Source: Planctomycetota bacterium (GTDB lineage Bacteria; Planctomycetota; PLA2; JAEUHO01). From it: a stretch of 48,116 nucleotides of DNA. The stretch spans positions 1 to 48,116 of the forward strand of contig CBDCTJ010000006.1 in NCBI GenBank assembly GCA_965222115.1, given 5' to 3'. The translations under genes were made by a program, and so were the position numbers. Below are positions 4,256 through 48,116 of this stretch, piece by piece. The notes below the pieces were generated by a model, which saw only the letters and a list, made by a program, of their open reading frames with translations, was not told where the DNA came from and did not search any database. The stretch's first letter is position 1. Each line of letters starts with the position of its first letter.

Positions 4256-4765
4256 CTATTGCGAAGCGTCTAAAGTACTGTTCAGTTGCTTTTGTTCGCG
4301 TATCGCAACTTTTAAAGCTTTGTTTCTAGCTTCATTGGCTCTTTCGTTAGTTCGCCATGTTTCAGAATGGCGATGGTTATTACTGTAAGTACAGTAGTAT
4401 TCTACGCCAGCTTGATGCAACATTCTAGCACAATTTCCGCAAGGCATACGAGTAATGTAAGCGGTCCCACCTTTAAGAGATACTCCGTGACGAGCAGCAT
4501 GGGCAATGGCATTAGCTTCTGCATGTACACAAGGGCATATATTGTAACTTTTGCCGCCGTGTAAGCCTAATTTATCTCGCATACACTCTTGCATATCATC
4601 ACATTCACCACGCATAGGCCCGTTATAACCCATAGCTAATATAACGCCACTAGAATCTGCTATAACACAACCTGTTTTGCCACCAGGACAAACTGATCTG
4701 TCCTGACACAACGATTCTGCAATATTTAGCATTGTTCTTGGAATTGATTGTCTCACGTCTTCCAT
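4256..4765 (-). CDS. dCMP deaminase family protein
   Basis: GYNG, HAEANA and PCGNC zinc-deaminase motifs. Confidence 0.92.
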   Translation of the reverse strand: MEDVRQSIPRTMLNIAESLCQDRSVCPGGKTGCVIADSSGVILAMGYNGPMRGECDDMQECMRDKLGLHGGKSYNICPCVHAEANAIAHAARHGVSLKGGTAYITRMPCGNCARMLHQAGVEYYCTYSNNHRHSETWRTNERANEARNKALKVAIREQKQLNSTLDASQ

Positions 4766-5076
4766 TATCCTGTATTTGTAGTGTTAAACCTAAAATTAGG
4801 TCCATTTAGTAGTGTGTTCATTAAACTAATTACTTGGTTTTTAGTCATTACAAATACTTCAGTAGGACTACCTGGATCTATGCTTTTAGCACCTTCTACA
4901 AAAACAACTTCTATAGTTTCGTCGTCGTGAAAGTAATATTGCAGCCTACGTTCGCGATCAGTTAAATCACCTCCACAAAATTCTAATCCTGGCGAGTGTA
5001 AAGACGAACCTTTTAGTACTCTAGTATCAGAACCTACTGCACTAAGCTCATCAAAAATTTCATCAGAGATTGGCAA
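4765..5076 (-). CDS. Hypothetical protein
   Basis: 103 aa; TAATG overlap with the deaminase start. Confidence 0.6.
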   Translation of the reverse strand: MPISDEIFDELSAVGSDTRVLKGSSLHSPGLEFCGGDLTDRERRLQYYFHDDETIEVVFVEGAKSIDPGSPTEVFVMTKNQVISLMNTLLNGPNFRFNTTNTG

Positions 5077-5866
5077 GGCGTTTCTCCTCTACTGCAGCTC
5101 TTTCAAGCCACACGTTTAACCATCTATACAGTTTAGTACCTTTTTGTGCTCTACCAATTTGTTTAAGGTATCTAGCATAAACTTCTGCAAAAGAATTTTC
5201 AATGTGACCTCCTACACTTAGAGGAGGCGGTGCTTCACTTCTACGATAGTAATGTTCTGCCCATTCAAGTTCCCACTTTTTAGCTACTTGCAATTCAGTC
5301 CATGTTTTATACTTAGGAGGAACTTCATCTAGCCATGGCCAAACGAATTCTTTATCGTCTAATTTGTTTAAACCTTGCTTAGTAATTCCACCAGTATTAG
5401 TAAGCACACGATCTACCATAGCATTACCAGGAGGTATTATTATACCCGTAATGTACTTATAGTCATCTCTTGGCGTAAGTATACGGCTGTCCTGATAGTT
5501 TTGTATTTTAAGCTGTCCAGCAGAATAGTAATATCCTGCCGGATCTCTTCGAGCTCTTGCTCTTGTTTCTTTCGCGTACATGTACCAGTATAAGAACAAT
5601 GCACCTCGTCGCCATTTCCATCTGGCATAGGAACCAGCTCGAAACCGCCCTCTGGTATTAGTAGCCACCCATATGGGGTACACTTTTCTTGCTGCTTCAT
5701 CTAGTGTACATTTCCAAACCTTTCCTGGATGAGCGCTAGGAAGATCTATATAAGGAGGACCTTTAGGACGAGGAGGTTGCGGGAGTGCTTTTGTTATTGG
5801 AAGTGGTTTTAGTGTCCTTTTCTTTTCATGCCTTTTTGGAGGAACTATTTTAGGAGGACGCCCCAT
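5063..5866 (-). CDS. Hypothetical basic, Trp/Tyr-rich protein
   Basis: ATG at 5866 overlaps the TS-like stop (TAATG); N-terminal GRPPK basic/Pro-rich segment. Confidence 0.7.
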   Translation of the reverse strand: MGRPPKIVPPKRHEKKRTLKPLPITKALPQPPRPKGPPYIDLPSAHPGKVWKCTLDEAARKVYPIWVATNTRGRFRAGSYARWKWRRGALFLYWYMYAKETRARARRDPAGYYYSAGQLKIQNYQDSRILTPRDDYKYITGIIIPPGNAMVDRVLTNTGGITKQGLNKLDDKEFVWPWLDEVPPKYKTWTELQVAKKWELEWAEHYYRRSEAPPPLSVGGHIENSFAEVYARYLKQIGRAQKGTKLYRWLNVWLERAAVEEKRLANL

Positions 5867-6759
5867 TACCAACCAATACCTTCATGTGAAAAGTTATAAG
5901 GCTGCATAAATCCATGATCTGCATGTTTGTAGTCGCCGTTTAGTACATTAAGCAATGGATTTAGCGAAGGTACTATATTGTGGTTAAAAGTTTGGAATTC
6001 TAGAATATCATCTAGTTGATTGTTAAGACCTATACTAAAAGCATCACTAATCATAGGAGTACTTTCAATAGCATAACTTGTACGAAGTTTTGGTAAAATA
6101 TCTTCAGTATTTGATTCATACTTTGTATAAAGATGCATAGAGCCAGCTATATGAGTATAAGTTCCTATATCAACAGCAAGATAGTTTGCAATCATTTGTT
6201 GCCAAAGAGTAAACGTAAACATATCGTATGGCATACCTAAATATGCATCATTAGATCTCATATAGGTAGTTGCATGCAATTGTCCGTTACGTACTTGATA
6301 TTGTAAAGTCATTGTGCAAGGTGGTGTACCAGGATGCCTATAGCGAGGTAAATTTCCACAACTTGGACTTAATACTGCGCGTCTTGTATTGGAATTAATT
6401 GAAAGGTCATTTACTACTAAGTATAAGTCTGGGAACACTGATGGTCCATACGCCCAATAAGCATATTCAGTTTGATCTTGGTCTGCCACAAATTTAGTTA
6501 TTCCTTTAGAGTATGCCTTTAAGAAATCAACATCATTGCGTGGACACAAATTCCACAATGACTCAGCAAGTGCATACCTATAGTTAAATCGTCTTTCCAC
6601 ACATGAAATTAAATTATACTGTGGACTATGTACTTTAATAGCATAGTTAATTATTTCCCTAACAGTACCTAGTCTAGATTCTTGTTTTTGTGGCAATAAG
6701 AGTTGCTTAAGTGTCTGTTTGTACGCATCTGTTATTGTATCAACTGAAATACAATGCAT
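5866..6759 (-). CDS. Thymidylate synthase superfamily enzyme, dCMP hydroxymethylase/methylase-like
   Basis: AYG, TRRAV, PPC (catalytic Cys), MRSND, GMPYD, GSMHLY motifs; Asp at the pyrimidine-specificity position; GGAGG RBS. Confidence 0.88.
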   Translation of the reverse strand: MHCISVDTITDAYKQTLKQLLLPQKQESRLGTVREIINYAIKVHSPQYNLISCVERRFNYRYALAESLWNLCPRNDVDFLKAYSKGITKFVADQDQTEYAYWAYGPSVFPDLYLVVNDLSINSNTRRAVLSPSCGNLPRYRHPGTPPCTMTLQYQVRNGQLHATTYMRSNDAYLGMPYDMFTFTLWQQMIANYLAVDIGTYTHIAGSMHLYTKYESNTEDILPKLRTSYAIESTPMISDAFSIGLNNQLDDILEFQTFNHNIVPSLNPLLNVLNGDYKHADHGFMQPYNFSHEGIGW

Positions 6760-6791
6760 GGTTACCTCCGGTTCGATTCATTACGCATTGT

Positions 6792-6800
6792 ATTATAGCA
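6792..6800 (-). promoter_or_regulatory. Extended -10 promoter (TGcTATAAT) for the TS-like operon
   Basis: TGn-TATAAT about 33 nt upstream of the 6759 start codon. Confidence 0.65.
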
Positions 6801-7285: not shown

Positions 7286-7672
7286 TTACGTTGTAGGACC
7301 GAGACGCAATGGTTCTAAGGTTACGTCACCTGTTCCCAAACAGCGTTCTTCTTTAGGTGTAACTGAGGTATCAGTATAGATCACATCGCATTGAAACTTA
7401 ATTTCATCTGTCTGACCGTCAGGTGAAATGTCAGTTAAAAACCACCACCTGAATATACCATTCGATCTGTTTTCCCAGGTACCGTGATCTGGATTACTAG
7501 TATTTCTAATAAAGGTAACAACTTTAGACCCATACTCGCGAAACCGCCACGTGATGATCCGTGCAGGATCAGTCATGTCGATAGCCACGCCATTCTTAGT
7601 CACAGACATTAACCATTCCCAAGTAGTCAGTCTATGAATGGTCCAGTAAAATTTCTTCTTATCGTGACTCAT
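7286..7672 (-). CDS. BppU N-terminal-like Ig-fold adaptor
   Basis: 128 aa; GVAIDMT, NGIFRW, FQCDV, GTGDVTL strand pattern; follows the repeat protein. Confidence 0.5.
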   Translation of the reverse strand: MSHDKKKFYWTIHRLTTWEWLMSVTKNGVAIDMTDPARIITWRFREYGSKVVTFIRNTSNPDHGTWENRSNGIFRWWFLTDISPDGQTDEIKFQCDVIYTDTSVTPKEERCLGTGDVTLEPLRLGPTT

Positions 7673-10029
7673 AACCTTACCTCAAATACCGTAGATGACG
7701 GTTCTTGGTAGTTTAGCGTAGAAGGTGCTGGTTCACTGTAGTCTAAAGTAGCAGCATCTGGATCATTATAGTTCAGGGTAGACTCAACTACTACTGTGGA
7801 GCCAGTAAACCGCGTGGAAAAGGAAGCTTCAGCACTCGCGTGTACAACGGATAGTTGAGCATTACTTGATCCTGAAAAAACAGAATCAGGCGAAAAGGTC
7901 GCTAACGAGCCAACAGATACTGCTGACAAACTGGCGTTAGTAGTAGCAGTAAAGGTTGGTGCAAACGTAGACGTAGAATCACTAACTACTATATGAAGAC
8001 TAGAGTGCGATGTTGCAGTGAATGTAGGCGATATGCTAGACGCACTCACTGAGGAACTGGCTATACTAATGCTAGAAGAAGAGGTAGCCGAACTAGACCC
8101 AGGATCAAACTGTGCACTAGAGCTAGATGCAACAATACTTAAGTTTTGGTCAGCGTTTGCGCTAAACACTGCTGCAGCATACACTGCTGTAGCACTACTA
8201 GATACCGTACCTACAGATCCAGACGCACTTGCAGTGAAAACAGGTGCTGTATGGGTAGCGCTAGATGAAGACTCTACAGATGCAACATTACTAGACGAAG
8301 TAGCAGTACGAGTAGGCTCAGTGTGGGTTGCAGTAGCACTACTCGATACAGAGCCAGCTACAGATGAGCCTGTTGCCGATCTTATCACATTTGAAAACGC
8401 TGCAGTAGCATTTGACGAAACTAGTCCTAACGCACTAGCTGACGTAGCAGAAAACGAAGGCGCTTCGTGTGATGAAGTAGAGCTAGACTCAACAATACTA
8501 ATAGAAGATGCGCCAGTGGCTGTGAATACTGGTGCAGTAGACGATCCGGTACTTGAACTCGTGACACTGCCTGCAACCCCATCAGAAGTAGCTGAACGCA
8601 CCACGGTAGACACAAGACCGGTAGCACTAGAATCTACTATGCTAAGTGAACTAGCCACAGTAGCTGTAAATACTGGTGCAGAATGGGTCGCTGTAGCAGA
8701 AGTGTCTGCTAGACTTAAGTCTGAACTTACTGAACCTGTTCTAGTAGCGGCAGAGTAACTTGCCGAAGCACTGGAAACCACCCCGCCCTTTAAGATAGAA
8801 GAGGTGGCGGTGAAGACAGGGGTTGTAGTAGTGCCAGTCGAACTAGACTCTAGTAAGGACAACTCACCTGAAGCGTTAGCAGTAAACACAGGTGCTGTGT
8901 GAGAACTAGTAGAATTAGACTCGACAATACCTAGAGACGCGGTTCCAGTGGCTGTAAACGTAGGCTGTGCGCTAGTGGCGCTTGATGCACTTTCAGCAAA
9001 GGTTTGGACAACACTGTCTGAAGTCCCACTGAATGTGGGCGCGACATTAGTACCGGAAGACGAAGATTCTACTACACTAAGGGTAGAAGCAGCTGTAGCC
9101 GTGAATACCGGCGCTGTGTAAGAACCGGTGCTTGAGGATTCTAGTACAGAAAGAGAACCACTAGCAGTTGCAGAGAACGTTGGCCCTGCGTGAGTAGCGG
9201 AAGAATTACTACCAACTACACTTAACTGGTTAGCGGCACTAGCAGTAAAAACCGGAGTTGTATGAGTTGCAGTACCAGCTGAGTTTACTGATGCAGCACT
9301 AGCACTTGCTGTAGCTTCCCGTGTCGCCAATGAGAAAGTTGCTGTAGCGCTAGATTGAATAGAGCCTGCGTCGCCAGCTGCTGAAGCAGTTCTAGTAGGA
9401 CCAATAAAGGAAGCAGAAGCGCTAGAACTTACACTGCCAGCAGAACCACTAGCTGTAGCGCTTCTTGTAGGAGCAGTGTAAGAAGCTGTAGCTGACGAGG
9501 TTCTTGGGGCAACTACACCAGCTGCAGTAGCTGTGAAGGTAGCAGCTGGTACGTCAGCTTCCCACCAAATAGCACCGATCTCGCAGCCGGCACGTTTGGA
9601 CGGGCTACCTCCTCCGCCACTAGTCTGGACTACTGCACACTCTACATTAGACCCGTCAGCAGTGGATAATTGGTTAGCGTTCCAGGTGGCGGTAACAACA
9701 GTCCCTGGGTCAGTAGCAGGTTCTGAATACGTGTTCAGAGTAGCGACAAGAACGCCACTCTCCCAAAGCTCAATCTTAAAGGGCGCCGTGTTAGTCCCGG
9801 AAGACGCAGCCCTTCTCATCCTTACTTTAAACGTTTGGAGCCCGGCCCCTACTGTTGGGTTACCAGACGGGGTATTGAACGCTACCCGAACACTTGTATC
9901 TCCGTTACCATCCCAAGCGCCCCAAAGAGTGTCGGCGTTATCTGGATCCTCGTTGATTCCACCGGACGTAATACTAGAATAGTTGGCGGAAGCCGCAATA
10001 GAGCTAATGGTGACATTCTCAATAGCCAT
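7669..10029 (-). CDS. Ser/Thr/Ala-rich repeat fibre protein
   Basis: 786 aa; ~160-aa N-terminal beta domain, 24 repeats of ~24 aa, three 10-aa C-terminal repeats. Confidence 0.8.
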   Translation of the reverse strand: MAIENVTISSIAASANYSSITSGGINEDPDNADTLWGAWDGNGDTSVRVAFNTPSGNPTVGAGLQTFKVRMRRAASSGTNTAPFKIELWESGVLVATLNTYSEPATDPGTVVTATWNANQLSTADGSNVECAVVQTSGGGGSPSKRAGCEIGAIWWEADVPAATFTATAAGVVAPRTSSATASYTAPTRSATASGSAGSVSSSASASFIGPTRTASAAGDAGSIQSSATATFSLATREATASASAASVNSAGTATHTTPVFTASAANQLSVVGSNSSATHAGPTFSATASGSLSVLESSSTGSYTAPVFTATAASTLSVVESSSSGTNVAPTFSGTSDSVVQTFAESASSATSAQPTFTATGTASLGIVESNSTSSHTAPVFTANASGELSLLESSSTGTTTTPVFTATSSILKGGVVSSASASYSAATRTGSVSSDLSLADTSATATHSAPVFTATVASSLSIVDSSATGLVSTVVRSATSDGVAGSVTSSSTGSSTAPVFTATGASSISIVESSSTSSHEAPSFSATSASALGLVSSNATAAFSNVIRSATGSSVAGSVSSSATATHTEPTRTATSSSNVASVESSSSATHTAPVFTASASGSVGTVSSSATAVYAAAVFSANADQNLSIVASSSSAQFDPGSSSATSSSSISIASSSVSASSISPTFTATSHSSLHIVVSDSTSTFAPTFTATTNASLSAVSVGSLATFSPDSVFSGSSNAQLSVVHASAEASFSTRFTGSTVVVESTLNYNDPDAATLDYSEPAPSTLNYQEPSSTVFEVRL
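7813..9543 (-). repeat. 24 degenerate tandem ~72-nt coding repeats (P-[VT]-[FR]-T-A-T-A...L-S-x-V-E-S-S-S-T-A-T-H-T-A)
   Basis: Counted by hand: 577 aa = 21 units of 24 aa, two of 25, one of 23. Confidence 0.85.
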
Positions 10030-10034
10030 ATTGC

Positions 10035-10229
10035 CTACTTAGTTTTCTTGAGCAACTTCCTCAAGAATTTTCGTTCTTCGATTACTTTGTGGTCAGTACT
10101 CTTACGTGGCAGATCCTTTAAGCGATTGAGGATTGTCGCGCGAGTGTATGAACTGGAAGCTTTAGCTTCAACTGTCACATTTAGGTCAATTAGAAGTGGG
10201 AGAGGCGGCGGTGTTGATGGTCTGGTCAT
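10035..10229 (-). CDS. Small basic hypothetical protein
   Basis: ATG at 10229, 1 nt after the upstream stop; fills the gap to the next gene. Confidence 0.55.
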   Translation of the reverse strand: MTRPSTPPPLPLLIDLNVTVEAKASSSYTRATILNRLKDLPRKSTDHKVIEERKFLRKLLKKTK

Positions 10230-10230
10230 C

Positions 10231-10650
10231 TTACTGTTCGTTGACCGTAAGCGTGAACGCGCTGATCGCCACTGTACCACCGGCAACGATCGACTTGTTG
10301 TCGAAAGTCATGTCAGGTGTGTCAGCAGCTTCACCGGCAGTGCCTTGCCAAATTACATTTGAATCAGAATCCTTGATTCGATAGTGCCCGGCATCGCCAG
10401 TTGCGTCTGCGTTAGTATCGCTAGTGATCGCACTAGCCGTAGCTACTCCTGCGGCAGCTGCACCAAATGCAGGATCGGAACAAGTAAGCGTTGCCAGCAG
10501 AGTTCCCGAGTCCGCAGTTGCGGGTGTCGCAGGCGGTGCACCAGTCCTGATCTCGATAGTACCAGCTCCGGCACCACCATCCACTAGATCCACAATTGCA
10601 TCGCACGCACCGTTCCGTGCGGCGGTTGAAATTTTCAAATTAGAGGCCAT
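10231..10650 (-). CDS. Small virion fibre/appendage subunit
   Basis: 139 aa Ala/Gly/Thr-rich; ARN...GTIEIRTGAPPA...LLATL...ADATGDAGHYRI pattern of phage structural proteins; GGGAG RBS. Confidence 0.75.
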   Translation of the reverse strand: MASNLKISTAARNGACDAIVDLVDGGAGAGTIEIRTGAPPATPATADSGTLLATLTCSDPAFGAAAAGVATASAITSDTNADATGDAGHYRIKDSDSNVIWQGTAGEAADTPDMTFDNKSIVAGGTVAISAFTLTVNEQ

Positions 10651-10796
10651 AATCGCTCCCGTACTGATATGCGCTCGGTTTACATAATAACGTACGGAAC
10701 AAAAAAGCTTCCAGTTGGGAGGGGTGTTTTCTTGTTGGGGCGAAAAATTCTCCGTATCGATAGCCTAAAGAAAATCTGAAAAAAGGCATATTGTCC

Positions 10797-10821
10797 TAAG
10801 TACTTGCTATATAAGTACTTA
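10797..10821. promoter_or_regulatory. Perfect inverted repeat TAAGTACTT-N7-AAGTACTTA, probable protein-binding site
   Basis: 9-bp arms in the divergent intergenic region; half-site matches the AAnnACTTA motif repeated at 12653-13020. Confidence 0.6.
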
Positions 10822-10854
10822 TATTAGTCAAGGTTGCAATGTCTAAATTATAAA

Positions 10855-10883
10855 TGTCACATGGCTCAAGAAAAGAGTATAAT
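10855..10883 (+). promoter_or_regulatory. Sigma70-like promoter
   Basis: TGTCAC-17 nt-TATAAT upstream of the + strand gene. Confidence 0.6.
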
Positions 10884-11013
10884 AGATATGTAACCAAGTG
10901 CACTTACAATGCACTAACTTACATGCTCTTTGACATTTTCATGCATCACACTGCAATACGTATGTAGGGCAGACCTTACTCTTCTCTCAATCAAGTCAAG
11001 AAAGGTCAATACT

Positions 11014-13595: not shown

Positions 13596-13896
13596 CCAGT
13601 CCCTCAACCGAGCTGCGTACCTTCTTAAAGGGTACGCAGCTTATTTGCCATGCTCGATCCCCAACCCATGAACGAGCGTACCAGACAGGTATATCATCAA
13701 TATTGATACCGATAGGTACACCAGACGCTTGATCAACGCATGCTTCGCGCAATACTGCCCACACTTCAACACCTACTAAGTATACACATGAAGTCATTGG
13801 TTTTGTCAGTCTAGTACAGGCATCGACTATTTGATCCAAACCTGATTGTGGAGACAGCCACATAATGTCATAGTCAGGATGATCAATCATAATCAA
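13582..13896 (-). CDS. Hypothetical protein
   Basis: 104 aa; last gene of the tightly packed - strand array. Confidence 0.55.
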   Translation of the reverse strand: MIMIDHPDYDIMWLSPQSGLDQIVDACTRLTKPMTSCVYLVGVEVWAVLREACVDQASGVPIGINIDDIPVWYARSWVGDRAWQISCVPFKKVRSSVEGLVIEG

Positions 13897-14207
13897 GCAC
13901 CATCTATCAAATCACCTTCATTTGCCATAACTACACCAGACGTCGAAGGATCTGTACTCAAATCGGGTGCGTTTACAACAGAAGCACGACGTCCTGATGT
14001 TGAATCAAACACAAACGTAACGCCACCAGGCGAATCTGAAGCCGAGGTTTTCAAATCTATGACCACTATATTCAAAGAGTTTGGTAACAGCGGCGTAAAC
14101 GCAACACCCAAAGGTGCAACTCCTAATGCAACTACACCTCTAAGATTTGGTGGAATTTCACCAACCCCGCCGATATATGTGCCTCTTGTTCCATTCAATA
14201 CAGCCAT
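13893..14207 (-). CDS. Hypothetical Gly/Pro/Val-rich protein
   Basis: TAATG coupling to the upstream gene. Confidence 0.65.
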   Translation of the reverse strand: MAVLNGTRGTYIGGVGEIPPNLRGVVALGVAPLGVAFTPLLPNSLNIVVIDLKTSASDSPGGVTFVFDSTSGRRASVVNAPDLSTDPSTSGVVMANEGDLIDGA

Positions 14208-14515
14208 TAGAACACATCCGTACCGGCAGGTTCATCAACACCCGGGCCTGTTTTCAAAGCGCCATGAACTCGTATTTGCCAGTCTGGAGCTAAACCCCAA
14301 AAGAAAGCTAATGTCATAAAATGAACACCTCCAGCTGCTGCTGCTACAGCTGGATCTGTAACATAAATGTTTTGAACACCACCGGTAGTATTTATGAAAC
14401 CGAGAGTGTACCATCCTAGTATCGGAGAATGAAAGAACATCAAACCTTCAGTACATGAAACTGGCGCACCACCTGTTGTAGCCCACGTAAACTGTACATT
14501 ACCTCTGTAGCACAT
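14207..14515 (-). CDS. Hypothetical Gly/aromatic beta-rich protein
   Basis: 102 aa ATG ORF in operon register. Confidence 0.65.
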   Translation of the reverse strand: MCYRGNVQFTWATTGGAPVSCTEGLMFFHSPILGWYTLGFINTTGGVQNIYVTDPAVAAAAGGVHFMTLAFFWGLAPDWQIRVHGALKTGPGVDEPAGTDVF

Positions 14516-14742: not shown

Positions 14743-15034
14743 TTTCGAACTGGACCTTCCTGATCCCTTCGGCTTTTTCAATTTCGCGAGCTACTGCCCC
14801 AGCACTGGCGTTTGCTTTAATACCTGCTTGCATAATCACAGAATGACGCATCATCAATGCCTTTAGTTGACCAATGTCAAGACCATATTTCAAATGTAAT
14901 AAAAACGCCACTTCAGTCTCTCCCGCACATCTATCTCCTATAGGGCCATCCTTTAAGAACTTGGCGAGAAGACCACCGTTCATTCCTAGATCAAAGTCGG
15001 AAGACTGCCCGCCAATAAAGTTATTGTTATTCAT
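14723..15034 (-). CDS. Hypothetical protein
   Basis: 103 aa ORF in operon register. Confidence 0.65.
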   Translation of the reverse strand: MNNNNFIGGQSSDFDLGMNGGLLAKFLKDGPIGDRCAGETEVAFLLHLKYGLDIGQLKALMMRHSVIMQAGIKANASAGAVAREIEKAEGIRKVQFENDSSAR

Positions 15035-15233
15035 GTTTGATAGCTTTCAATACTTCACTACGTAGGTTTTTCTGTAAATGTTTTGTGTCTTTACCATCTA
15101 CAAGAGTCCACGCCAATTTGAGGTATATCTCATTAACAAGACGTGTAATATCCTTAGTATCTGTACTATCAAGTATTTTTAAGTTGAAAGTTGCAGAAAC
15201 TTCTAATTTGAAGTGCATTTCTATATCTGTCAT
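15027..15233 (-). CDS. Hypothetical protein
   Basis: 68 aa; ATGA overlap. Confidence 0.6.
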   Translation of the reverse strand: MTDIEMHFKLEVSATFNLKILDSTDTKDITRLVNEIYLKLAWTLVDGKDTKHLQKNLRSEVLKAIKHE

Positions 15234-15475
15234 ATGTCAGATCCTATTTGACTAGTAGTGGTAGTTTTAGGACCGCATATGGTACACTTACTTATAAACG
15301 GAGCATAACAACTTCCACAACCTGGGCATTGCCAGCCTTGAAGTGGTTTAGGCTGAACTGTACGTTCAGGGTTAGGTTCCTTTATTGGATCAAAGTCAGG
15401 GCAATCTTTTGTTGCATGTTGTCTACCACAACGAGCACAAAGTGGCCAATAAACATTATCAGGAAGTTTAGTCAT
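15230..15475 (-). CDS. Small double zinc-finger protein
   Basis: CARC-H-C and GWQCPGC...CTIC motifs. Confidence 0.7.
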   Translation of the reverse strand: MTKLPDNVYWPLCARCGRQHATKDCPDFDPIKEPNPERTVQPKPLQGWQCPGCGSCYAPFISKCTICGPKTTTTSQIGSDI

Positions 15476-19442: not shown

Positions 19443-21413
19443 CTACAGGTTCGTCGACATCCACCATTTTTTCACACCAGTAGCATCTGCTATGTATTTG
19501 TTTCCGGCCTTTGCGCTTGGGTGATCCCATGTTGGCTCCACGTCAATATCTATAAGTTTACCCCATGTAGGATTAAACTGTTCTACGTCACATTTCAAAG
19601 GTACACAAAATAGATTTTTGTCACCTAAAAATGATGCACAATATGCTGACAATATCTCTATAGCATCAGATTCAGGTAACTTTTTAGATATTCTAATACC
19701 TGCTTCATCATGTACTGTTACGTATTGCTCAGCTATTTTTTGGTTATGCTTACGATTCCACCAATTTAAGCAATGGTAGCCTCGCACTAGGGCACGTTTC
19801 ATTAGTGTACCACAGCCACCTTGGATAAGCCAATTAATGGCTTTATACCATTCACTACTACCTAAACGGTGAGTACGACCAAACCTGTCAACAACGCACC
19901 CAAACTCAGCAATTTGGTGTGCTGTTAATTCCTTTAAACGGTTAACACCAGGAAACCCTTCAAGATAAGCACGACGAAGTGCGCGTGTTTGGCCCATTGT
20001 AATCATTTCTTGAAGGTTGTCGTCTTGATTAATAGTTTCCATTGTAGTTTTATCGCCAGCACCATAAATAATGGCAAAATTCAAAGTCTTTGCTCTGAAG
20101 CGATCTTCTTTGGTAACTTCGCTTGAATTCCCCATTACATGCTTTATGCGTTCTGCAGTTCCTGTATGTGCGTCAACTTCATTTAGGAACATACTAATAA
20201 GAGTTTTATCTTGACTATAGTCTGCAAAATCTACCATTTCAACTTGTTTGTAGTCAGCATGATAAGTATAGTAGTTATTTGATATAAAACAATCACGTAC
20301 AGAATAATTTTTGATGCTGCCTTCACGTGGCATTTGTTGAATAGGCGGTTCAGCAGCTGACATTCTACCTGTGCGTGCACCAGTTTGTCTATACGAAGGA
20401 TGGATTTTACCATCCGGACATATAGCACTAAGAATTTGCTTTGATATTTTTGTAAATGCTTCTAATTTACGAATACGTCTAAGTCGCCTAATAACTAAAC
20501 TATTAGGTGCATGTCTTTTAAGTGCATTTTTACCGCAAGATTTATTACCTGTTTTAGTAAAGTCTAAACATTCTAGACCTAATTTTTCATACATAAACTC
20601 GCGCATTTGCTTAGGTGAACGTTGATTAGGAGTGTAACCTACTTCTGCTTTTATTTTGCTATACTGATAGTCTATAGCAGAAAGTGCTTTTTCTACAGAA
20701 GATTCTAAGTATTCTTCATTTACAGGTAAACCATTGTTATGCATATCAATAAGCACTGGAACAAGATACATTTCAGTATTAAAGGTTGGCATCATATTAT
20801 CGCGTTCTAAGCCACCTTTAAGTAAATACCACATATACATGGTCATTTTACCGTCATCTTCTATGTACCGTCCCATTATTTCCCATGGTACATGAGAGTA
20901 GTTAGGCTCGCAGCCATAAGTAGTATGACAGTATTGGCGATTGCGAGCAATCCATGTTTTGACTTCAGAGTCTGATCCAGGTTCTATAAGTGGCTTACCA
21001 TCTTTTCTAAGATAGGCAGCAGAACACTGTTTTAGTCTAAATGGAAAAGCTTTTTCATCTAACAAACTTATAGCTACTTGAGCATCTGCCCATGGCCATT
21101 GCAGCTCTATACCATAGGTAGCAGTAATCATTCGCCAATCAAAGCCAATGTTCCAACCTACCTTTAAGACATCGGGATTTTCTAGTATGGCATGCAGTAT
21201 ACGTTTGTTTGTAGGTGAGCCAAAACCTTCAGCTCTCACTGATTCTAAGTATGCGCCTTCTTCCCGCAGAACTTTACAATCACCTGTATCAGAATACAAA
21301 ACCGTGGCAAATACACGGGCACCTTTATGCACATATAGTCCTGTTGTTTCACAGTCAAATGCAATAGCTTTATTGTACTCTAATCGGAAATCTCCGACTT
21401 CGATTGTTGGCAT
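19443..21413 (-). CDS. polA: DNA polymerase family A with 3'-5' exonuclease
   Basis: FDCETTGL, WNIGFD, YIEDD exonuclease motifs; ARTGRMS, ADYKQVE (A), RAKTLNFAIIYG (B), TVHDE (C); ATG 21413 has GAGG RBS. Confidence 0.95.
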   Translation of the reverse strand: MPTIEVGDFRLEYNKAIAFDCETTGLYVHKGARVFATVLYSDTGDCKVLREEGAYLESVRAEGFGSPTNKRILHAILENPDVLKVGWNIGFDWRMITATYGIELQWPWADAQVAISLLDEKAFPFRLKQCSAAYLRKDGKPLIEPGSDSEVKTWIARNRQYCHTTYGCEPNYSHVPWEIMGRYIEDDGKMTMYMWYLLKGGLERDNMMPTFNTEMYLVPVLIDMHNNGLPVNEEYLESSVEKALSAIDYQYSKIKAEVGYTPNQRSPKQMREFMYEKLGLECLDFTKTGNKSCGKNALKRHAPNSLVIRRLRRIRKLEAFTKISKQILSAICPDGKIHPSYRQTGARTGRMSAAEPPIQQMPREGSIKNYSVRDCFISNNYYTYHADYKQVEMVDFADYSQDKTLISMFLNEVDAHTGTAERIKHVMGNSSEVTKEDRFRAKTLNFAIIYGAGDKTTMETINQDDNLQEMITMGQTRALRRAYLEGFPGVNRLKELTAHQIAEFGCVVDRFGRTHRLGSSEWYKAINWLIQGGCGTLMKRALVRGYHCLNWWNRKHNQKIAEQYVTVHDEAGIRISKKLPESDAIEILSAYCASFLGDKNLFCVPLKCDVEQFNPTWGKLIDIDVEPTWDHPSAKAGNKYIADATGVKKWWMSTNL

Positions 21414-22174
21414 GGCTTTACCTCTACGCCACATGTAGTACATACACCATTAGGTAGAATGTTGCACACTCTATCCATAATAATGCATTCAGGTAGCTGC
21501 TCTGATACGGTTTTTAGAATAAAGTTAGACTCATGTGTTATTCCTGAGTCTTTACTTTTAGGTACAATACCACACTCATCGATAATCCAATTAGCTGTAG
21601 CTAGTTCATCTCCTACGTCTTCAGGTAATGTAGTTGTAACATGATTTAGCTTATGGTAAACTAGCCCACGAATAATGCCATCTATAGCTTGTTGGTAAAC
21701 AATACTATCAGATCGATAACAGTCTAGTACAAGTGGTAACCTTCCAAATGGCATCATTATTACTTGATCGTATGGATGCGTTGTTATGTGCATCATACAA
21801 CGATTCATCATGCGTAATGATTCATTTTCAAGAAGTTTTTGTTTACGTTTCCATTTTCCACCAAATCGAGGCAATACTGATGACCAGTATACAAAATAAG
21901 CTGCACTATCAAGAACAGTACGCTCTGCTATCCAGTTATGGTCTACAGCACTAGCGTTATTTTCGCATTCTATTTGGTTTTCTATTATTTCTACTTGCAC
22001 TTTTACATAAGTAAGAGGATCTTGGTCTAGATTTCTTTCTATAGATACAGTATTGTTTCGTTCAAATACAATTCTAGCTTGGGATTGTATATATCGATAC
22101 TTCATTAATGAAGCAATTTCAAGAGCTGTACATGTTTTACCTGTACCGCCAGAACCAGATAATGCTATCCTCAT
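21380..22174 (-). CDS. P-loop nucleotide kinase (AAA_28/NadR-like, probable dNMP kinase)
   Basis: MRIALSGSGGTGKT and ERTVLDSAAY motifs. Confidence 0.8.
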   Translation of the reverse strand: MRIALSGSGGTGKTCTALEIASLMKYRYIQSQARIVFERNNTVSIERNLDQDPLTYVKVQVEIIENQIECENNASAVDHNWIAERTVLDSAAYFVYWSSVLPRFGGKWKRKQKLLENESLRMMNRCMMHITTHPYDQVIMMPFGRLPLVLDCYRSDSIVYQQAIDGIIRGLVYHKLNHVTTTLPEDVGDELATANWIIDECGIVPKSKDSGITHESNFILKTVSEQLPECIIMDRVCNILPNGVCTTCGVEVKPCQQSKSEISD

Positions 22175-22659
22175 AGCTCTATACCATTTTTAGTGCGTTG
22201 GTCGTGGTCCTCTAGTACTTCTTTAATAGCAGGCGCCCTGTAAGAACTACCTTTAGATCTGAGACGGGTGTCTTTTTCGTCTCGTAGAGCTTTAGTCATG
22301 TTAGATTGATGTACTTCCCAGAATACATCTGCACATGGAATGTTATAAGTAACTGCAGTACCTATTACAACATATAGAAGGTCTGCAATAGCATCTGCGG
22401 CCATGATGCGATTGCCTCTAGATAGTGCTTCAGCTAACTCAGAAGCTTCTTCTAGAATTAAATGTAAGCGTACTAAAGATGTATCAGGAATACCTACAAA
22501 CTCTGAATCTTCAGCAAAGTTTAGTACTTCCTTAGACATAGCTTTTAGTCTATTAGCATGTCTAGTTAAGTAGTAACTATCACAACATTCTACTGGAATG
22601 TTTATTGGAAAGTTATATTTTTTGTGAAAACTTTCAACAGCACTTTGTTCTGCGTCCAT
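22171..22659 (-). CDS. MazG/PRA-PH-like NTP pyrophosphohydrolase
   Basis: LILEEASEL...DAIADLLYV...EVHQSNMTK motifs. Confidence 0.88.
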   Translation of the reverse strand: MDAEQSAVESFHKKYNFPINIPVECCDSYYLTRHANRLKAMSKEVLNFAEDSEFVGIPDTSLVRLHLILEEASELAEALSRGNRIMAADAIADLLYVVIGTAVTYNIPCADVFWEVHQSNMTKALRDEKDTRLRSKGSSYRAPAIKEVLEDHDQRTKNGIEL

Positions 22660-22809: not shown

Positions 22810-23679
22810 TTACTCTACAGCAACTTCTTCGTCCTCGTCGAGGACTTCATCAGAATCAGCTGCAACATTTTCAGTTGTAGCTTCATCATCAAATTCGTCA
22901 AGTGGATCAGGTGCATCTTCAGAAGGCACTTCAACTTCTTTTGCTTGTGCCTTCTTTTCTGCAGCCTTGGCAGCTTTCTCAGCTTTTTCTTCTTCACGCT
23001 TTTTCTTATTGATAGCTTTATCAATATCACGTGTTAGCATAGCAAGAGGTTTGCCGGTATCACCGCCATAACCAACGTTCTCAAACTTACCATTACGGTA
23101 TTGCGTAAGATACCATGCAAGGTGAGTTTTATCGAACTTTGATTCAGGAAACTTTTCTTTGACAGCAGCAATAATATCATCATTGCTAGGTGCCACCATA
23201 CCAGTGACTTCTTCACCTGTTTCAGGATTGGTGTACGTTTGCTCAGTACCAGCAAGAATCTTCAATACAAGACTCTTGATAGTGGGCCCACGTGAAACAC
23301 GTTTAGTACCCGAACGTGGTGAATTTTCAACAAGTGGCTCACACATAGCTTCTTCTGTAACTTTAGCCACAGGTGCAGGCAAATCACCATCACATACTAC
23401 TGTATAGAAAAGCGCCTGGAAGCCATATTGACATAGACGTACTAGTTGCTTACGATTAGGGCTCAACAAAGTTTCTTCTGTTGCATCTTCACCCTCACCA
23501 CGGGTAACAGTAACCATAGGATCATGCCCGTAGAGCTCAGCGTACAACGGCTGAAGCTTCTTAGTAGGCATGGCACTAATAGCACGAATTACGTCCATGT
23601 AGTTTTCGGTGGTAGGTGCAACAACCGTCTCAAGACGATCCAAAGATTCTTTGGTGACCTGGCGTAGTTGTTCTGACAT
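22810..23679 (-). CDS. Hypothetical protein with helical domain, Lys/Ala-rich helix and acidic tail
   Basis: 289 aa; own promoter, GGAG RBS and terminator. Confidence 0.85.
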   Translation of the reverse strand: MSEQLRQVTKESLDRLETVVAPTTENYMDVIRAISAMPTKKLQPLYAELYGHDPMVTVTRGEGEDATEETLLSPNRKQLVRLCQYGFQALFYTVVCDGDLPAPVAKVTEEAMCEPLVENSPRSGTKRVSRGPTIKSLVLKILAGTEQTYTNPETGEEVTGMVAPSNDDIIAAVKEKFPESKFDKTHLAWYLTQYRNGKFENVGYGGDTGKPLAMLTRDIDKAINKKKREEEKAEKAAKAAEKKAQAKEVEVPSEDAPDPLDEFDDEATTENVAADSDEVLDEDEEVAVE

Positions 23680-46596: not shown

Positions 46597-47538
46597 TTAT
46601 GCAACTTCTAGTAGAGTTCCTTGCTTGTAAGGGTCCTTGCATCGAAGTTGACTGTAATGCTTCATGAAAAACGTATCTACATCTTTCACTTTTGCGAGTT
46701 TCTCAGTAACAAAGTTACGAAGAATATAATACTCCCACCAACGCTCATCAACAAAGTCCATACGGTTAGCTGCATATCCTGGTACTTTAATTACAGGAAT
46801 ACCTTCAAACAACAAAGCTTGATAGCCACCGTTTAGAATTTGAATATTATCGTTGTATGATCTACGAGCATCATCCGTACCAATCAGCAACGTGCCGTAC
46901 GAATCCCACAAAGCATCGCCAGTCCAAATGGCACTAACACGACCTTTTCGCGGAAACGACTCAACAGTACGCTTTACATCACGCATAAGCGCCATAGTCA
47001 AAGTACGGTTACCACCACCAGCATTGTCATTACGATAGGAAGCCATAAGAGGCTGACCTGCTCGCGACACACCTGCATAAGTAGCAGTATCAGTACCATC
47101 ATCAATGGCAGCTGTAACACCTGTTAAGTCTTTACCACTATTCCCAGTTCCATCACCGAGAAGTTGGGTGTTAATTTCTTCTTGAAGATCTGGTAGCGCT
47201 TCTTCAAGTTCATTTTGCAAAAGGTCTACTACAAATCCTTCACCAGCAGAAATAGCTTGAGCGAGCCCAGATACTTCTACAAGGATTTTATTAAGCTTCC
47301 AAGGAAGCTCAGCAGTAATGTAACCCTGCATTCCAGCGGTCCCGAGATTATCGAGTTCGCCGTATGAACCACGAGAATTATTACCAGAGGTATGTACCCG
47401 CCACTTAATAGTTTTTGCAGTTGATCCTTTAACGCGAATGCGACTCAACAGCCATGTATTACGTTGTAGAACTTCTGCAAATACGGGGTCAAAGACCTCG
47501 TTAATAAGTGCGGGAATGGCATCAATCGTGACCGTCAT
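46597..47538 (-). CDS. Major capsid protein (HK97 fold)
   Basis: 313 aa; LLGDGTGNSGKDLTG, FEGIPVI, QLRCKDPYKQG motifs; GGAGG RBS; follows the scaffold, followed by a terminator. Confidence 0.92.
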   Translation of the reverse strand: MTVTIDAIPALINEVFDPVFAEVLQRNTWLLSRIRVKGSTAKTIKWRVHTSGNNSRGSYGELDNLGTAGMQGYITAELPWKLNKILVEVSGLAQAISAGEGFVVDLLQNELEEALPDLQEEINTQLLGDGTGNSGKDLTGVTAAIDDGTDTATYAGVSRAGQPLMASYRNDNAGGGNRTLTMALMRDVKRTVESFPRKGRVSAIWTGDALWDSYGTLLIGTDDARRSYNDNIQILNGGYQALLFEGIPVIKVPGYAANRMDFVDERWWEYYILRNFVTEKLAKVKDVDTFFMKHYSQLRCKDPYKQGTLLEVA

Positions 47539-47557
47539 AGGTCAACCTCCGTGACAC

Positions 47558-48116
47558 CTAACTACCTGCTAATTTTTCTCTTAGTCTTGCACCCGCGTTA
47601 TTGAACAAATCACCATGACTAGCAGCTGATCCATCGCTGGAAGACACACCTGAAGGCAAGTGACCCACTTCCTTACTACCAGAATGGATAACGCCTTTAG
47701 GAAGTTTAGATCCGTCGGCATTACTACCCGGTTCTGGTTCAGAAGCGGGATCACTAGCTGAAGATGCACCAGCACCTGCTGGAATACTTGATTTCTTCAA
47801 ATATGGAGCTTCAGACTCAAGAAAAGCATTAACACCAGTTTCGGCGTCTATCCATTCCGTTGTCTTGTTTCCATCGCGCTCGACTTCCGATTTAATCTCA
47901 ACAACGTACTCACCCGTAGATTCGCCGTTATTGGTGATCTCACGTAACCGCGTACGTTTATTGCCAAGCAACTGGTGAACAGCAGTGGGATCGATTGCAC
48001 CAGCCTTCGCAGCTGCAGTTCCGATCGCCCTATTGATCCGTTCAGCATTGACCTGTTGGCGCAATGTCTTGCTACTTTTCTCAGCAGTGGCAAATTTTTC
48101 GTTTGCGGTATCGCGT
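47558..48116 (-). CDS. Capsid scaffolding protein, C-terminal part
   Basis: Frame open to the window end; AAAKAGAIDPTAV and PYLKK...GAGAS motifs. Confidence 0.85.
   Translation of the reverse strand, partial: RDTANEKFATAEKSSKTLRQQVNAERINRAIGTAAAKAGAIDPTAVHQLLGNKRTRLREITNNGESTGEYVVEIKSEVERDGNKTTEWIDAETGVNAFLESEAPYLKKSSIPAGAGASSASDPASEPEPGSNADGSKLPKGVIHSGSKEVGHLPSGVSSSDGSAASHGDLFNNAGARLREKLAGS

Follow-up and report, generated by a model that had tools for sequence, protein, structure and literature searches.

Among the closest described systems, the T4 pathway consists of gp42, the dCTPase gp56, the deoxynucleoside monophosphate (dNMP) kinase gp1 and the deaminase cd, and the module of the Xp12/PaMx74 type combines a nucleoside triphosphate (NTP) pyrophosphohydrolase or a HAD hydrolase with a deoxycytidine monophosphate (dCMP) methyltransferase of the thymidylate synthase (TS) family, an enzyme of the dCMP deaminase family and a dihydrofolate reductase (DHFR). 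Phages Xp12 and PaMx74 are described in a preprint (10.1101/2024.12.05.627091) as replacing C by 5-methylcytosine (5mC). The same preprint reports that 104 of 149 dCMP deaminases from modified-cytosine contigs lay less than 3 kb from a TS, compared with 17 of 277 from unmodified ones, that five of the seven deaminase-linked TS tested yielded 5-methyl-dCMP, that the deaminase studied turns 5-methyl-dCTP into dTTP, and that PRA-PH and DNA_pol_A often neighbour the TS-deaminase pair. As published, phages with C5-modified cytosine are marked by the pairing of a cytosine-type TS and a dCMP deaminase, less than 3 kb apart, with PRA-PH/MazG and a family A DNA polymerase (PolA) nearby. Here, a cluster of four co-oriented open reading frames (ORFs) is described that occupies positions 4256..6759 on the minus strand of contig CBDCTJ010000006.1, a phage-like contig analysed over its full length of 48,116 bases (the window). 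The cluster encodes a TS homologue, two orphan proteins and an enzyme of the dCMP deaminase family, and very probably constitutes the nucleotide-pool part of a pre-replicative cytosine-replacement pathway. A preliminary description of this DNA had proposed that the phage makes a C5-modified dCMP, and comparative evidence (the type of TS, the deaminase linkage, a MazG-like gene and PolA) supports that proposal.

The first gene of the cluster (5866..6759, minus strand) encodes a TS-family enzyme of 297 amino acids (aa), which scored 65.3 bits against the Pfam model PF00303 (cut-off 24.3, E 6.2e-18) and fell far short of all seven NCBIfam ThyA equivalog models, whose cut-offs are 108-427 bits and which gave 16.5-65.3 bits, the best being 65.3 against 327. 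Its best solved relative by sequence was the CMP hydroxymethylase MilA (E 2.4e-25), the best ThyA being matched at E 9.7e-14. An AlphaFold2 (AF2) model built from 47 sequences was confident except for the last 17 residues (pLDDT 83.3, pTM 0.84), and Foldseek placed MilA first (5jnh_A, E 8.5e-21, 306 aligned columns, TMq 0.68-0.71), with the C-terminal helical region included in the alignment, followed by ThyA and a phage dCMP hydroxylase, all with a probability of 1.00, so that the protein has the TS fold. When the phage collection was searched by tblastn with the TS homologue, 2,553 records matched, none of them covering 80% of the protein, and the best was the 'pyrimidine hmase' of an uncultured siphovirus (36.2% identity over 66%). 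The nearest among 5.8 billion clustered proteins were P0002 and P0003, with around 39% identity to the TS homologue.

The preliminary description had singled out the segment RSNDAYLGMPYD (residues 168-179 of this ORF, window positions 6223-6258) for an Asp where ThyA has Asn. This was confirmed in four independent alignments, all of which align Asp179 with Asn177 of E. coli ThyA and Asp179 of T4 gp42. That an Asp at this position specifies dCMP, as was also stated there, is supported by the alignments and by the consulted parts of PMC8670742, PMC6400193, PMC5175136 and PMC13326640. Asp occupies the column in 117 of 118 homologues (a set that includes the TS homologue itself) and also in T4 gp42, Xp12 and PaMx74, and Asn is found in the dUMP enzymes ThyA, SPO1 gp29, SP-10, a ViI-like phage and PaMx11. 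In ThyA, the N177D exchange is reported to turn the preference to dCMP (PMC8670742). The catalytic Cys and, in E. coli numbering, Glu58, Tyr94, Arg126/127, Arg166, Ser167, Asp169, His207 and Tyr209 were all invariant in an alignment of nine sequences, the TS homologue among them (A4). The key residues of the TS homologue are Cys148, Thr145 three positions before it (Cys-3), Trp102 two before the catalytic Tyr (Tyr-2), Ser169, Asp171, Asp179 and Arg126/127; ThyA His147 and Leu143 are replaced by Thr149 and Thr145, respectively, the ThyA-type C-terminus is absent, and the flexible C-terminal tail ends in GIGW. Ser169 and Arg126 are deoxyribose-type residues, the corresponding positions of MilA being taken by Ala and Lys, which are associated with its preference for ribose (PMC5175136).

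Two other specificities were considered and rejected. A ribo-specific CMP hydroxymethylase of the MilA type was ruled out by Ser169 and Arg126. The 5-hydroxy-dCMP synthases of the RB69 gp48/DLP3 gp80 type are marked by an Asn at the equivalent of Asp169 (PMC13326640), and that reading was ruled out by Asp171, which stands instead of Asn in the RSND motif. Because of Asp179 in the 177 column, of the deoxyribose-type pair Ser169/Arg126 and of Asp171, the predicted substrate, dCMP rather than dUMP or CMP, is well supported on comparative grounds.

The position most closely tied to the product is less typical. In T4 dCMP hydroxymethylase, Asp145 activates the substrate water and the D145N variant gave no product (PMC6400193), and the same paper proposes Asp/Glu at Cys-3 together with Ser/Thr at Tyr-2 as a signature of hydroxymethylation; the choice between Leu143 and Asp/Glu correlates with the product likewise (PMC13326640). 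In the TS homologue, Cys-3 is Thr145, within a GTPPC motif. Across the 118 homologues, this position holds 102 Asp, 7 Glu, 3 Thr, 3 Ser, 2 Asn and 1 His, the three Thr cases being the TS homologue, P0002 and P0003; it is Asn in the TS homologues of Xp12 and PaMx74 and Leu in ThyA. The three Thr-type proteins form a clade, with around 40% identity to each other, and all retain GTPPC, WAYG and an invariant C-terminal Trp; WAYG stands where T4 has S-N-Y, and the Trp lies on the tail that is disordered in the AF2 model. The Ser/Thr two before the catalytic Tyr is also absent, Trp102 being in its place, but as it is likewise absent from the aligned dUMP hydroxymethylases this is a weaker criterion. 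The published rule for predicting the product uses Asn/Asp at 177, Leu or Asp/Glu at 143 and Asn at 169, and the TS homologue falls outside it. Literature searches turned up no paper on a Thr-type TS variant; the motif itself was not searched by name, so novelty is not implied, and TS homologues with Thr at Cys-3 may already have been assayed in the preprint cited above (10.1101/2024.12.05.627091).

In a quick tree of 127 rows (118 homologues and nine references), ThyA and the 5mC-type enzymes split off by a strongly supported branch, and the same split (branch 100/99) was recovered in a careful tree of 45 rows, in which the TS homologue stood with 32 diverse picks from the other 117 homologues and with 12 additional references. 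The window clade, with a support of 100/100, was placed outside the group of ThyA, Xp12 and PaMx74 in both trees, yet a tree holding it with those enzymes was not rejected by the approximately unbiased (AU) test (delta lnL 0.31, p 0.467), and the base of the non-ThyA group was not resolved. After the AU test, phylogeny was dropped as a predictor of the product, which the trees do not decide.

Two further observations concern this family. P0053, P0075 and P0106 represent a separate lineage of Asp177-type TS in which the catalytic Cys ends an SPPC motif and the Arg126 position is Lys, which suggests a recurrent loss of the Cys-3 carboxylate. The only match of the profile of the window TS clade in the genome contigs was to a cellular protein of the actinomycete Streptomonospora halophila (NZ_BAABIK010000006.1, 9986-10957, plus strand), a TS homologue of 323 aa and 24% identity, with Asp at 177, DVPC and Gly at the position of Ser167, which may be a MilA-like enzyme of nucleoside antibiotic synthesis.

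The last gene of the cluster (4256..4765, minus strand) encodes a zinc-dependent enzyme of 169 aa of the dCMP deaminase family, with 60.3 bits against PF00383 (cut-off 25, E 1.8e-16) and further matches to PF14437 (E 4.8e-11) and PHROG 174. Its motifs GYNG, HAE (81-83) and PCGNC (108-112) are intact, and the last two, which hold the zinc ligands and the catalytic Glu, were invariant in alignment A6. The gene begins 1.1 kb downstream of the end of the TS gene, that is, less than 3 kb from an Asp177-type TS. Its relatives in the PDB are 1vq2 (T4 Cd), 2hvv, 7fh4, 2w4l and 4p9c; 7fh4, 4p9c-e and 1vq2 are listed in the preprint for the 5mC-selective deaminase mSCD-B5 (10.1101/2024.12.05.627091). 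The same source calls the 5mC-selectivity of deaminases polyphyletic, and therefore family membership does not predict the substrate of the deaminase. That this enzyme may act on a modified cytosine nucleotide, as had been suggested for the locus, corresponds to a pathway already proposed there. In BFVD, A0A8S5MQL3, a viral protein of 408 aa named for a CMP/dCMP deaminase domain, aligns over 242 columns to the TS model and appears to be a natural TS-deaminase fusion.

Between the TS and deaminase genes lie those of a 267-aa protein of an orphan family (5063..5866, minus strand, from ATG 5866, or 269 aa from TTG 5872) and of a 103-aa product (4765..5076, minus strand), the latter coupled at both sides. 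The TS stop and the 267-aa start share the sequence TAATG, the 267-aa and 103-aa ORFs overlap by 14 nt, a GAGGAG Shine-Dalgarno sequence preceding the TTG by 7 nt, and the 103-aa stop and the deaminase start again share TAATG, all three junctions being read from the sequence. In a codon model built from 11 window genes called with confidence, the four ORFs scored 6.0-8.2 bits per 100 nt in their own frame and the other frames were negative, except for one antisense frame of the 103-aa ORF (+1.0); the GC content of the four ORFs, 0.387, matches that of the window. Translational coupling of the four genes is real, and this part of the coupled four-gene operon put forward in the preliminary description stands. 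The promoter assigned to it fared less well, the extended -10 element TGCTATAAT (6792-6800, minus strand), which is present in the 74-nt gap preceding the TS gene, being a candidate only: it occurs four times in the window against 3.8 expected from shuffles, no more commonly than by chance, and is missing from the list produced by a generic promoter scan. As to the operon ending in the deaminase, this is the last of the four genes, but an end at that point was not borne out, as no terminator-like site was found after it and terL begins 55 nt downstream.

Further genes that could belong to the same pathway lie about 15 kb away. A MazG/PRA-PH-type NTP pyrophosphohydrolase of 162 aa (22171..22659, minus strand; PF01503, E 2.3e-13; PHROG 671; PDB DR2231, E 7.9e-7) shares 39% identity over 98 aa with the NTP-PPase adjoining the 'pyrimidine hmase' of MW202657 and also resembles the pyrophosphohydrolases beside the TS genes of PaMx74, Xp12 and AXL3; it is predicted to clear dCTP and dUTP. 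The start of the next gene, which encodes a P-loop protein of 264 aa beginning with MRIALSGSGGTGKT (21380..22174, minus strand), overlaps its stop, and PolA follows downstream. This P-loop protein matched AAA_28 with 28.9 bits (cut-off 27) and PHROG 2107 'thymidylate kinase' (E 1.6e-9) and had no sequence match in the PDB at E<=1; its gene scored +7.6 bits per 100 nt in the codon model and overlaps the longest PolA ORF. It is a candidate nucleotide monophosphate kinase for the modified dNMP. PolA itself (19443..21443, minus strand; PHROG 17, E 5e-79) shares no more than 25.8% identity with any polymerase of the phage collection and presumably uses the modified dNTP. Pfam and PHROGs scans of the called window ORFs revealed no second TS, ThyX motif, DHFR, glycosyltransferase or other hydroxymethyl-decorating enzyme, and within these scans the earlier remark that no glycosyltransferase was recognised holds. 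The MazG-like and P-loop genes had escaped the preliminary description, as had the atypical Thr at Cys-3 and the weakness of its promoter and operon-end calls. Upstream of the MazG-like gene, a 289-aa protein (22810-23679, minus strand) resembles in its residues 165-202 ORFs near the TS modules of PaMx74 and Xp12 (34-39% identity over 32-38 aa, E 5e-5 and 3e-4).

The 267-aa protein belongs to a family of seven members, itself included, among 1.84 billion representatives, which share the motifs RRGA-FL, LDD-EFVWPW-D and GRAG-GT-LG-WLD-WLERA (alignment A2). None of the seven matched Pfam, PHROGs or PDB profiles; a word-based homologue search with the window protein returned only the protein itself, its best Atlas score was 0.85, without a family, and the family profile had no match in the genome contigs. 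It was also unlike the unannotated neighbours of the TS genes in MW202657, AXL3, Xp12, PaMx74 and vipetofem, most of which lack Pfam families as well, and its AF2 model from seven sequences was too poor for a fold search (pLDDT 48.4). Judged by equal size and source, relatives of this protein share contigs with TS of the window clade (5,600, 15,083 and 39,290 nt), and, by the same measure, a 6,355-nt contig carries one of them together with a deaminase of 54% identity. The family seems to co-occur with the window TS clade and the deaminase subfamily, and its link to the TS may be functional or mere synteny. The 103-aa ORF, with a coding score of +8.2 bits per 100 nt, matched nothing in Pfam, PHROGs or NCBIfam and reached 0.79 as its best Atlas score, no search for sequence homologues having been made with it. 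A small terminase was considered for either ORF, as both lie upstream of terL, and no evidence for or against it was found.

In the proposed pathway, the TS homologue would bind dCMP and add to its C5 a one-carbon unit from methylene-tetrahydrofolate by a covalent mechanism through Cys148. The MazG-like enzyme would return dCTP (and dUTP) to the monophosphate, feeding the TS homologue and keeping plain dCTP from the polymerase, the P-loop kinase would phosphorylate the modified dNMP, and PolA would incorporate the modified nucleotide; the deaminase would supply the thymidine branch for a genome with 60% A+T in a phage without a dUMP-type TS of its own. We infer each of these catalytic steps, and the product, from the observed gene content, residues, coupling and similarities. 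For the product, 5-methyl-dCMP is tentatively preferred, with the deaminase then making thymidine nucleotides from 5-methyl-dC nucleotides, although our confidence in this falls somewhat short of even; the logic of Xp12 and PaMx74 would then perhaps have been reached on a MilA/hydroxymethylase-like scaffold, a suggestion made with the same reserve. The methyl product is preferred because the Cys-3 carboxylate, which T4 dCMP hydroxymethylase needs for water activation, is absent, as it is from the dCMP methylases of Xp12 and PaMx74 (Asn) and from ThyA (Leu), and Thr takes its place throughout the window clade. No glycosyltransferase was detected, and the five deaminase-linked TS that gave 5-methyl-dCMP among the seven reported (10.1101/2024.12.05.627091) point in the same direction. 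The pathway as a whole is supported by the module itself, with an NTP-PPase, a TS homologue and a deaminase, which is also present in Xp12, PaMx74, MW202657 and AXL3.

Several findings weigh against this preference. Similarity is higher to hydroxymethylases, both among solved proteins (MilA, E 2.4e-25, against ThyA, 9.7e-14) and among phage enzymes (the 'pyrimidine hmase' of MW202657, E 1.7e-43, against the TS of PaMx74, E 7e-10), and the window clade lies outside the ThyA and Xp12/PaMx74 group in both trees, though in view of the AU test this placement decides nothing. A methylase oxidises its folate and hence needs DHFR, which Xp12 and PaMx74 have beside the module, so that the failure to find DHFR in the window counts against methylation. 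The linkage of TS and deaminase is not specific to methylases, since it also occurs in AXL3 and MW202657, whose TS homologues have Asp at Cys-3. Thr differs from the Leu and Asn found in proven methylases, and a water could be held by its hydroxyl; the Cys-3 rule consists of one mutagenesis study and a correlation, and the P-loop protein is weakly assigned as a kinase (28.9 bits, with the cut-off at 27). A first alternative is a pathway as in T4, in which a dCMP hydroxymethylase whose water is activated by a residue other than a Cys-3 carboxylate would lead to DNA with 5-hydroxymethylcytosine, perhaps decorated by an unrecognised enzyme, and a classical dCMP deaminase would feed dUMP to the host ThyA. 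It would agree with the solved and annotated relatives closest to the TS homologue, which are hydroxymethylases, with the MilA-like C-terminal helical region in the 306-column structural alignment, with the lack of a DHFR in the window scans, with the Asp-type enzymes that have the same linkage in AXL3 and MW202657, and with the phage kinase, which is what T4 needs for hmdCMP (the role of gp1; 10.1101/2024.12.05.627091); besides, non-acidic residues at Cys-3 (Ser, Asn, His) are sporadic, occurring in six of the 118 homologues besides the window clade. Set against it are the inactivity of T4 D145N, the Thr at Cys-3 and the Trp at Tyr-2 of the TS homologue, which depart from the proposed signature (PMC6400193), and the fact that no glycosyltransferase was recognised, and we consider a hydroxymethyl product possible, if rather doubtful.

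The Thr at Cys-3, a residue found there in neither proven class, is also where a different chemistry could come in. A [ST]PPC-type TS homologue, perhaps with the 267-aa protein, might use a nucleophile that is neither hydride nor water to trap the exocyclic methylene intermediate and so produce a C5 group not so far described for mononucleotides. The SPPC of the unrelated second lineage P0053/P0075/P0106 and the presence of the rare 267-aa family, with its seven members, on contigs of the TS clade (by equal size and source) would be in keeping with it, and the TS family has held a recent surprise in the flavin-dependent 5-hydroxy-dCMP synthases (PMC13326640). However, there is no positive evidence of another nucleophile or cofactor, and the shared gene order of related phages may be all that the co-occurrence reflects. 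By equal size, the SPPC lineage has no link to the contigs of the 267-aa family, and the 267-aa protein, in which no catalytic motif is recognisable, occupies a place where one might expect a small terminase subunit; such a chemistry seems unlikely. In its fullest form, equally improbable, GTPPC-type enzymes would be a third product class on the hydroxymethylase scaffold, obligately linked to the 267-aa protein, with a C5 group that is neither methyl nor hydroxymethyl and of which the deaminase would convert part to the matching uracil derivative; phage DNA would then contain previously undescribed pyrimidines made before replication. An ordinary supply of thymidylate, the deaminase making dUMP, the TS homologue methylating it to dTMP and the DNA being canonical, would follow the textbook route from dCMP deaminase to TS and suit an A+T-rich genome (GC 0.397) in which no decorating enzymes were found and C-containing palindromes are neither avoided nor in excess. 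It is nevertheless very unlikely given the Asp instead of Asn at the specificity position in the TS homologue and in 117 of the 118 homologues, the dCMP preference of ThyA N177D (PMC8670742), the replacement of both His147 and Leu143 by Thr, the absence of the ThyA-type C-terminus and the scores far below the cut-offs of the seven ThyA equivalog models. The final base had been left open in the preliminary description and the same end point is reached here, with a methyl group favoured tentatively, a hydroxymethyl group held to be less probable and any other group a slim prospect.

The window (GC 0.397) carries nearly all its genes on the minus strand, and these include a portal, a large terminase, a major head protein, tail genes, PolA, a primase-helicase, a Sak4-like protein, an exonuclease and a helicase; its source is an uncultured tailed phage. 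No near-identical DNA was present in the phage collection, and searches of this collection with TerL and PolA gave nothing above 24-26% identity, so that no cultured relative with known DNA chemistry is usable for comparison. Rfam and tRNA scans of the window gave no match. The representation of palindromes was tried as a proxy of protective modification and dropped as uninformative, C-containing palindromes being not generally depleted or in excess (observed/expected 0.99 for 4-mers and 0.92 for 6-mers, with 0.95 and 0.87 for the A+T-only ones); the most depleted 6-bp palindrome was GATATC, with no occurrence against 17.3 expected, both strands counted.

The structural module appears to run across the window ends, with the portal at 634-2484 and head genes at 46597-48064, in agreement with a complete genome that is circularly permuted or was opened at an arbitrary point; in a simple check, the first 12-200 bases of the window had no repeat elsewhere in it. 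Among the virion and fibre-like genes, a protein of 786 aa (7669-10029, minus strand) is rich in Ser, Thr and Ala, highly repetitive and without a family match, and its gene is contained in a GC peak of 0.498 at 8001-10000, compared with about 0.39 elsewhere. A long ORF antisense to it (8018-8758) scored as coding in the codon model, probably as an artefact of composition. Between 12900 and 16100, where the first ORF list had plus-strand ORFs, the codon model preferred small minus-strand genes (13893-14207, 14207-14515, 15027-15233 and 15230-15475), none with a Pfam match.

Base modifications of phages decide which restriction, CRISPR and type IV systems cut their DNA, and the enzymes that make them serve as tools for sequencing and labelling. 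The TS homologue offers a direct test of the Cys-3 carboxylate as the divider between hydroxymethylation and methylation, and of a repeated origin of methylases. The deaminase of the window belongs to the pool that yielded 5mC-selective deaminases, and the 267-aa family is a rare orphan with a defined genomic partner against which it can be tested.

Compared with Xp12 and PaMx74, the locus has the same Asp at the N177 position, a non-acidic Cys-3 and a deaminase downstream of the TS gene; the genome also encodes PolA and a related pyrophosphohydrolase of the MazG type, and there is no separate dUMP-type TS. However, the TS proteins are distant relatives, with 28% identity over 76 aa (E 7e-10), and do not group together in the free trees, Cys-3 is Thr and not Asn, the window yielded no DHFR, the TS and deaminase genes are separated by two orphan genes, and the pyrophosphohydrolase gene is 15 kb away. 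With T4 gp42 the TS homologue shares the cytosine-type Asp, the RSND motif and the Cys-Thr after the catalytic Pro, and the pathway as a whole has the same set of functions, pyrophosphohydrolase, kinase and deaminase; in contrast, Asp145 and Ser94 of gp42 (PMC6400193) are replaced by Thr145 and Trp102, the MilA-like C-terminal region is missing from gp42, and no glucosyltransferase, td or frd was found in the window. MilA (PDB 5jnh, 5b6d), from mildiomycin biosynthesis, is the best match in both sequence and structure and has Asp at the specificity position, but it carries Ala176, Lys133 and Asp at Cys-3 where the TS homologue has Ser169, Arg126 and Thr145, and serves a cellular antibiotic pathway and not a phage DNA pathway.

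The cluster also resembles the deaminase-plus-TS contigs defined by MetaGPA (10.1101/2024.12.05.627091), with its deaminase less than 3 kb from an Asp177-type TS and with PRA-PH and PolA, and its deaminase is comparable to mSCD-B5 in matching the same PDB relatives (7fh4, 4p9c and 1vq2). Its unusual features are the Thr signature, the combination of a MilA-like scaffold with a non-acidic Cys-3, the lack of a detected DHFR and the two inserted orphan genes. To judge from these sequence comparisons, the cluster is a divergent member of the recently described phage pathway.

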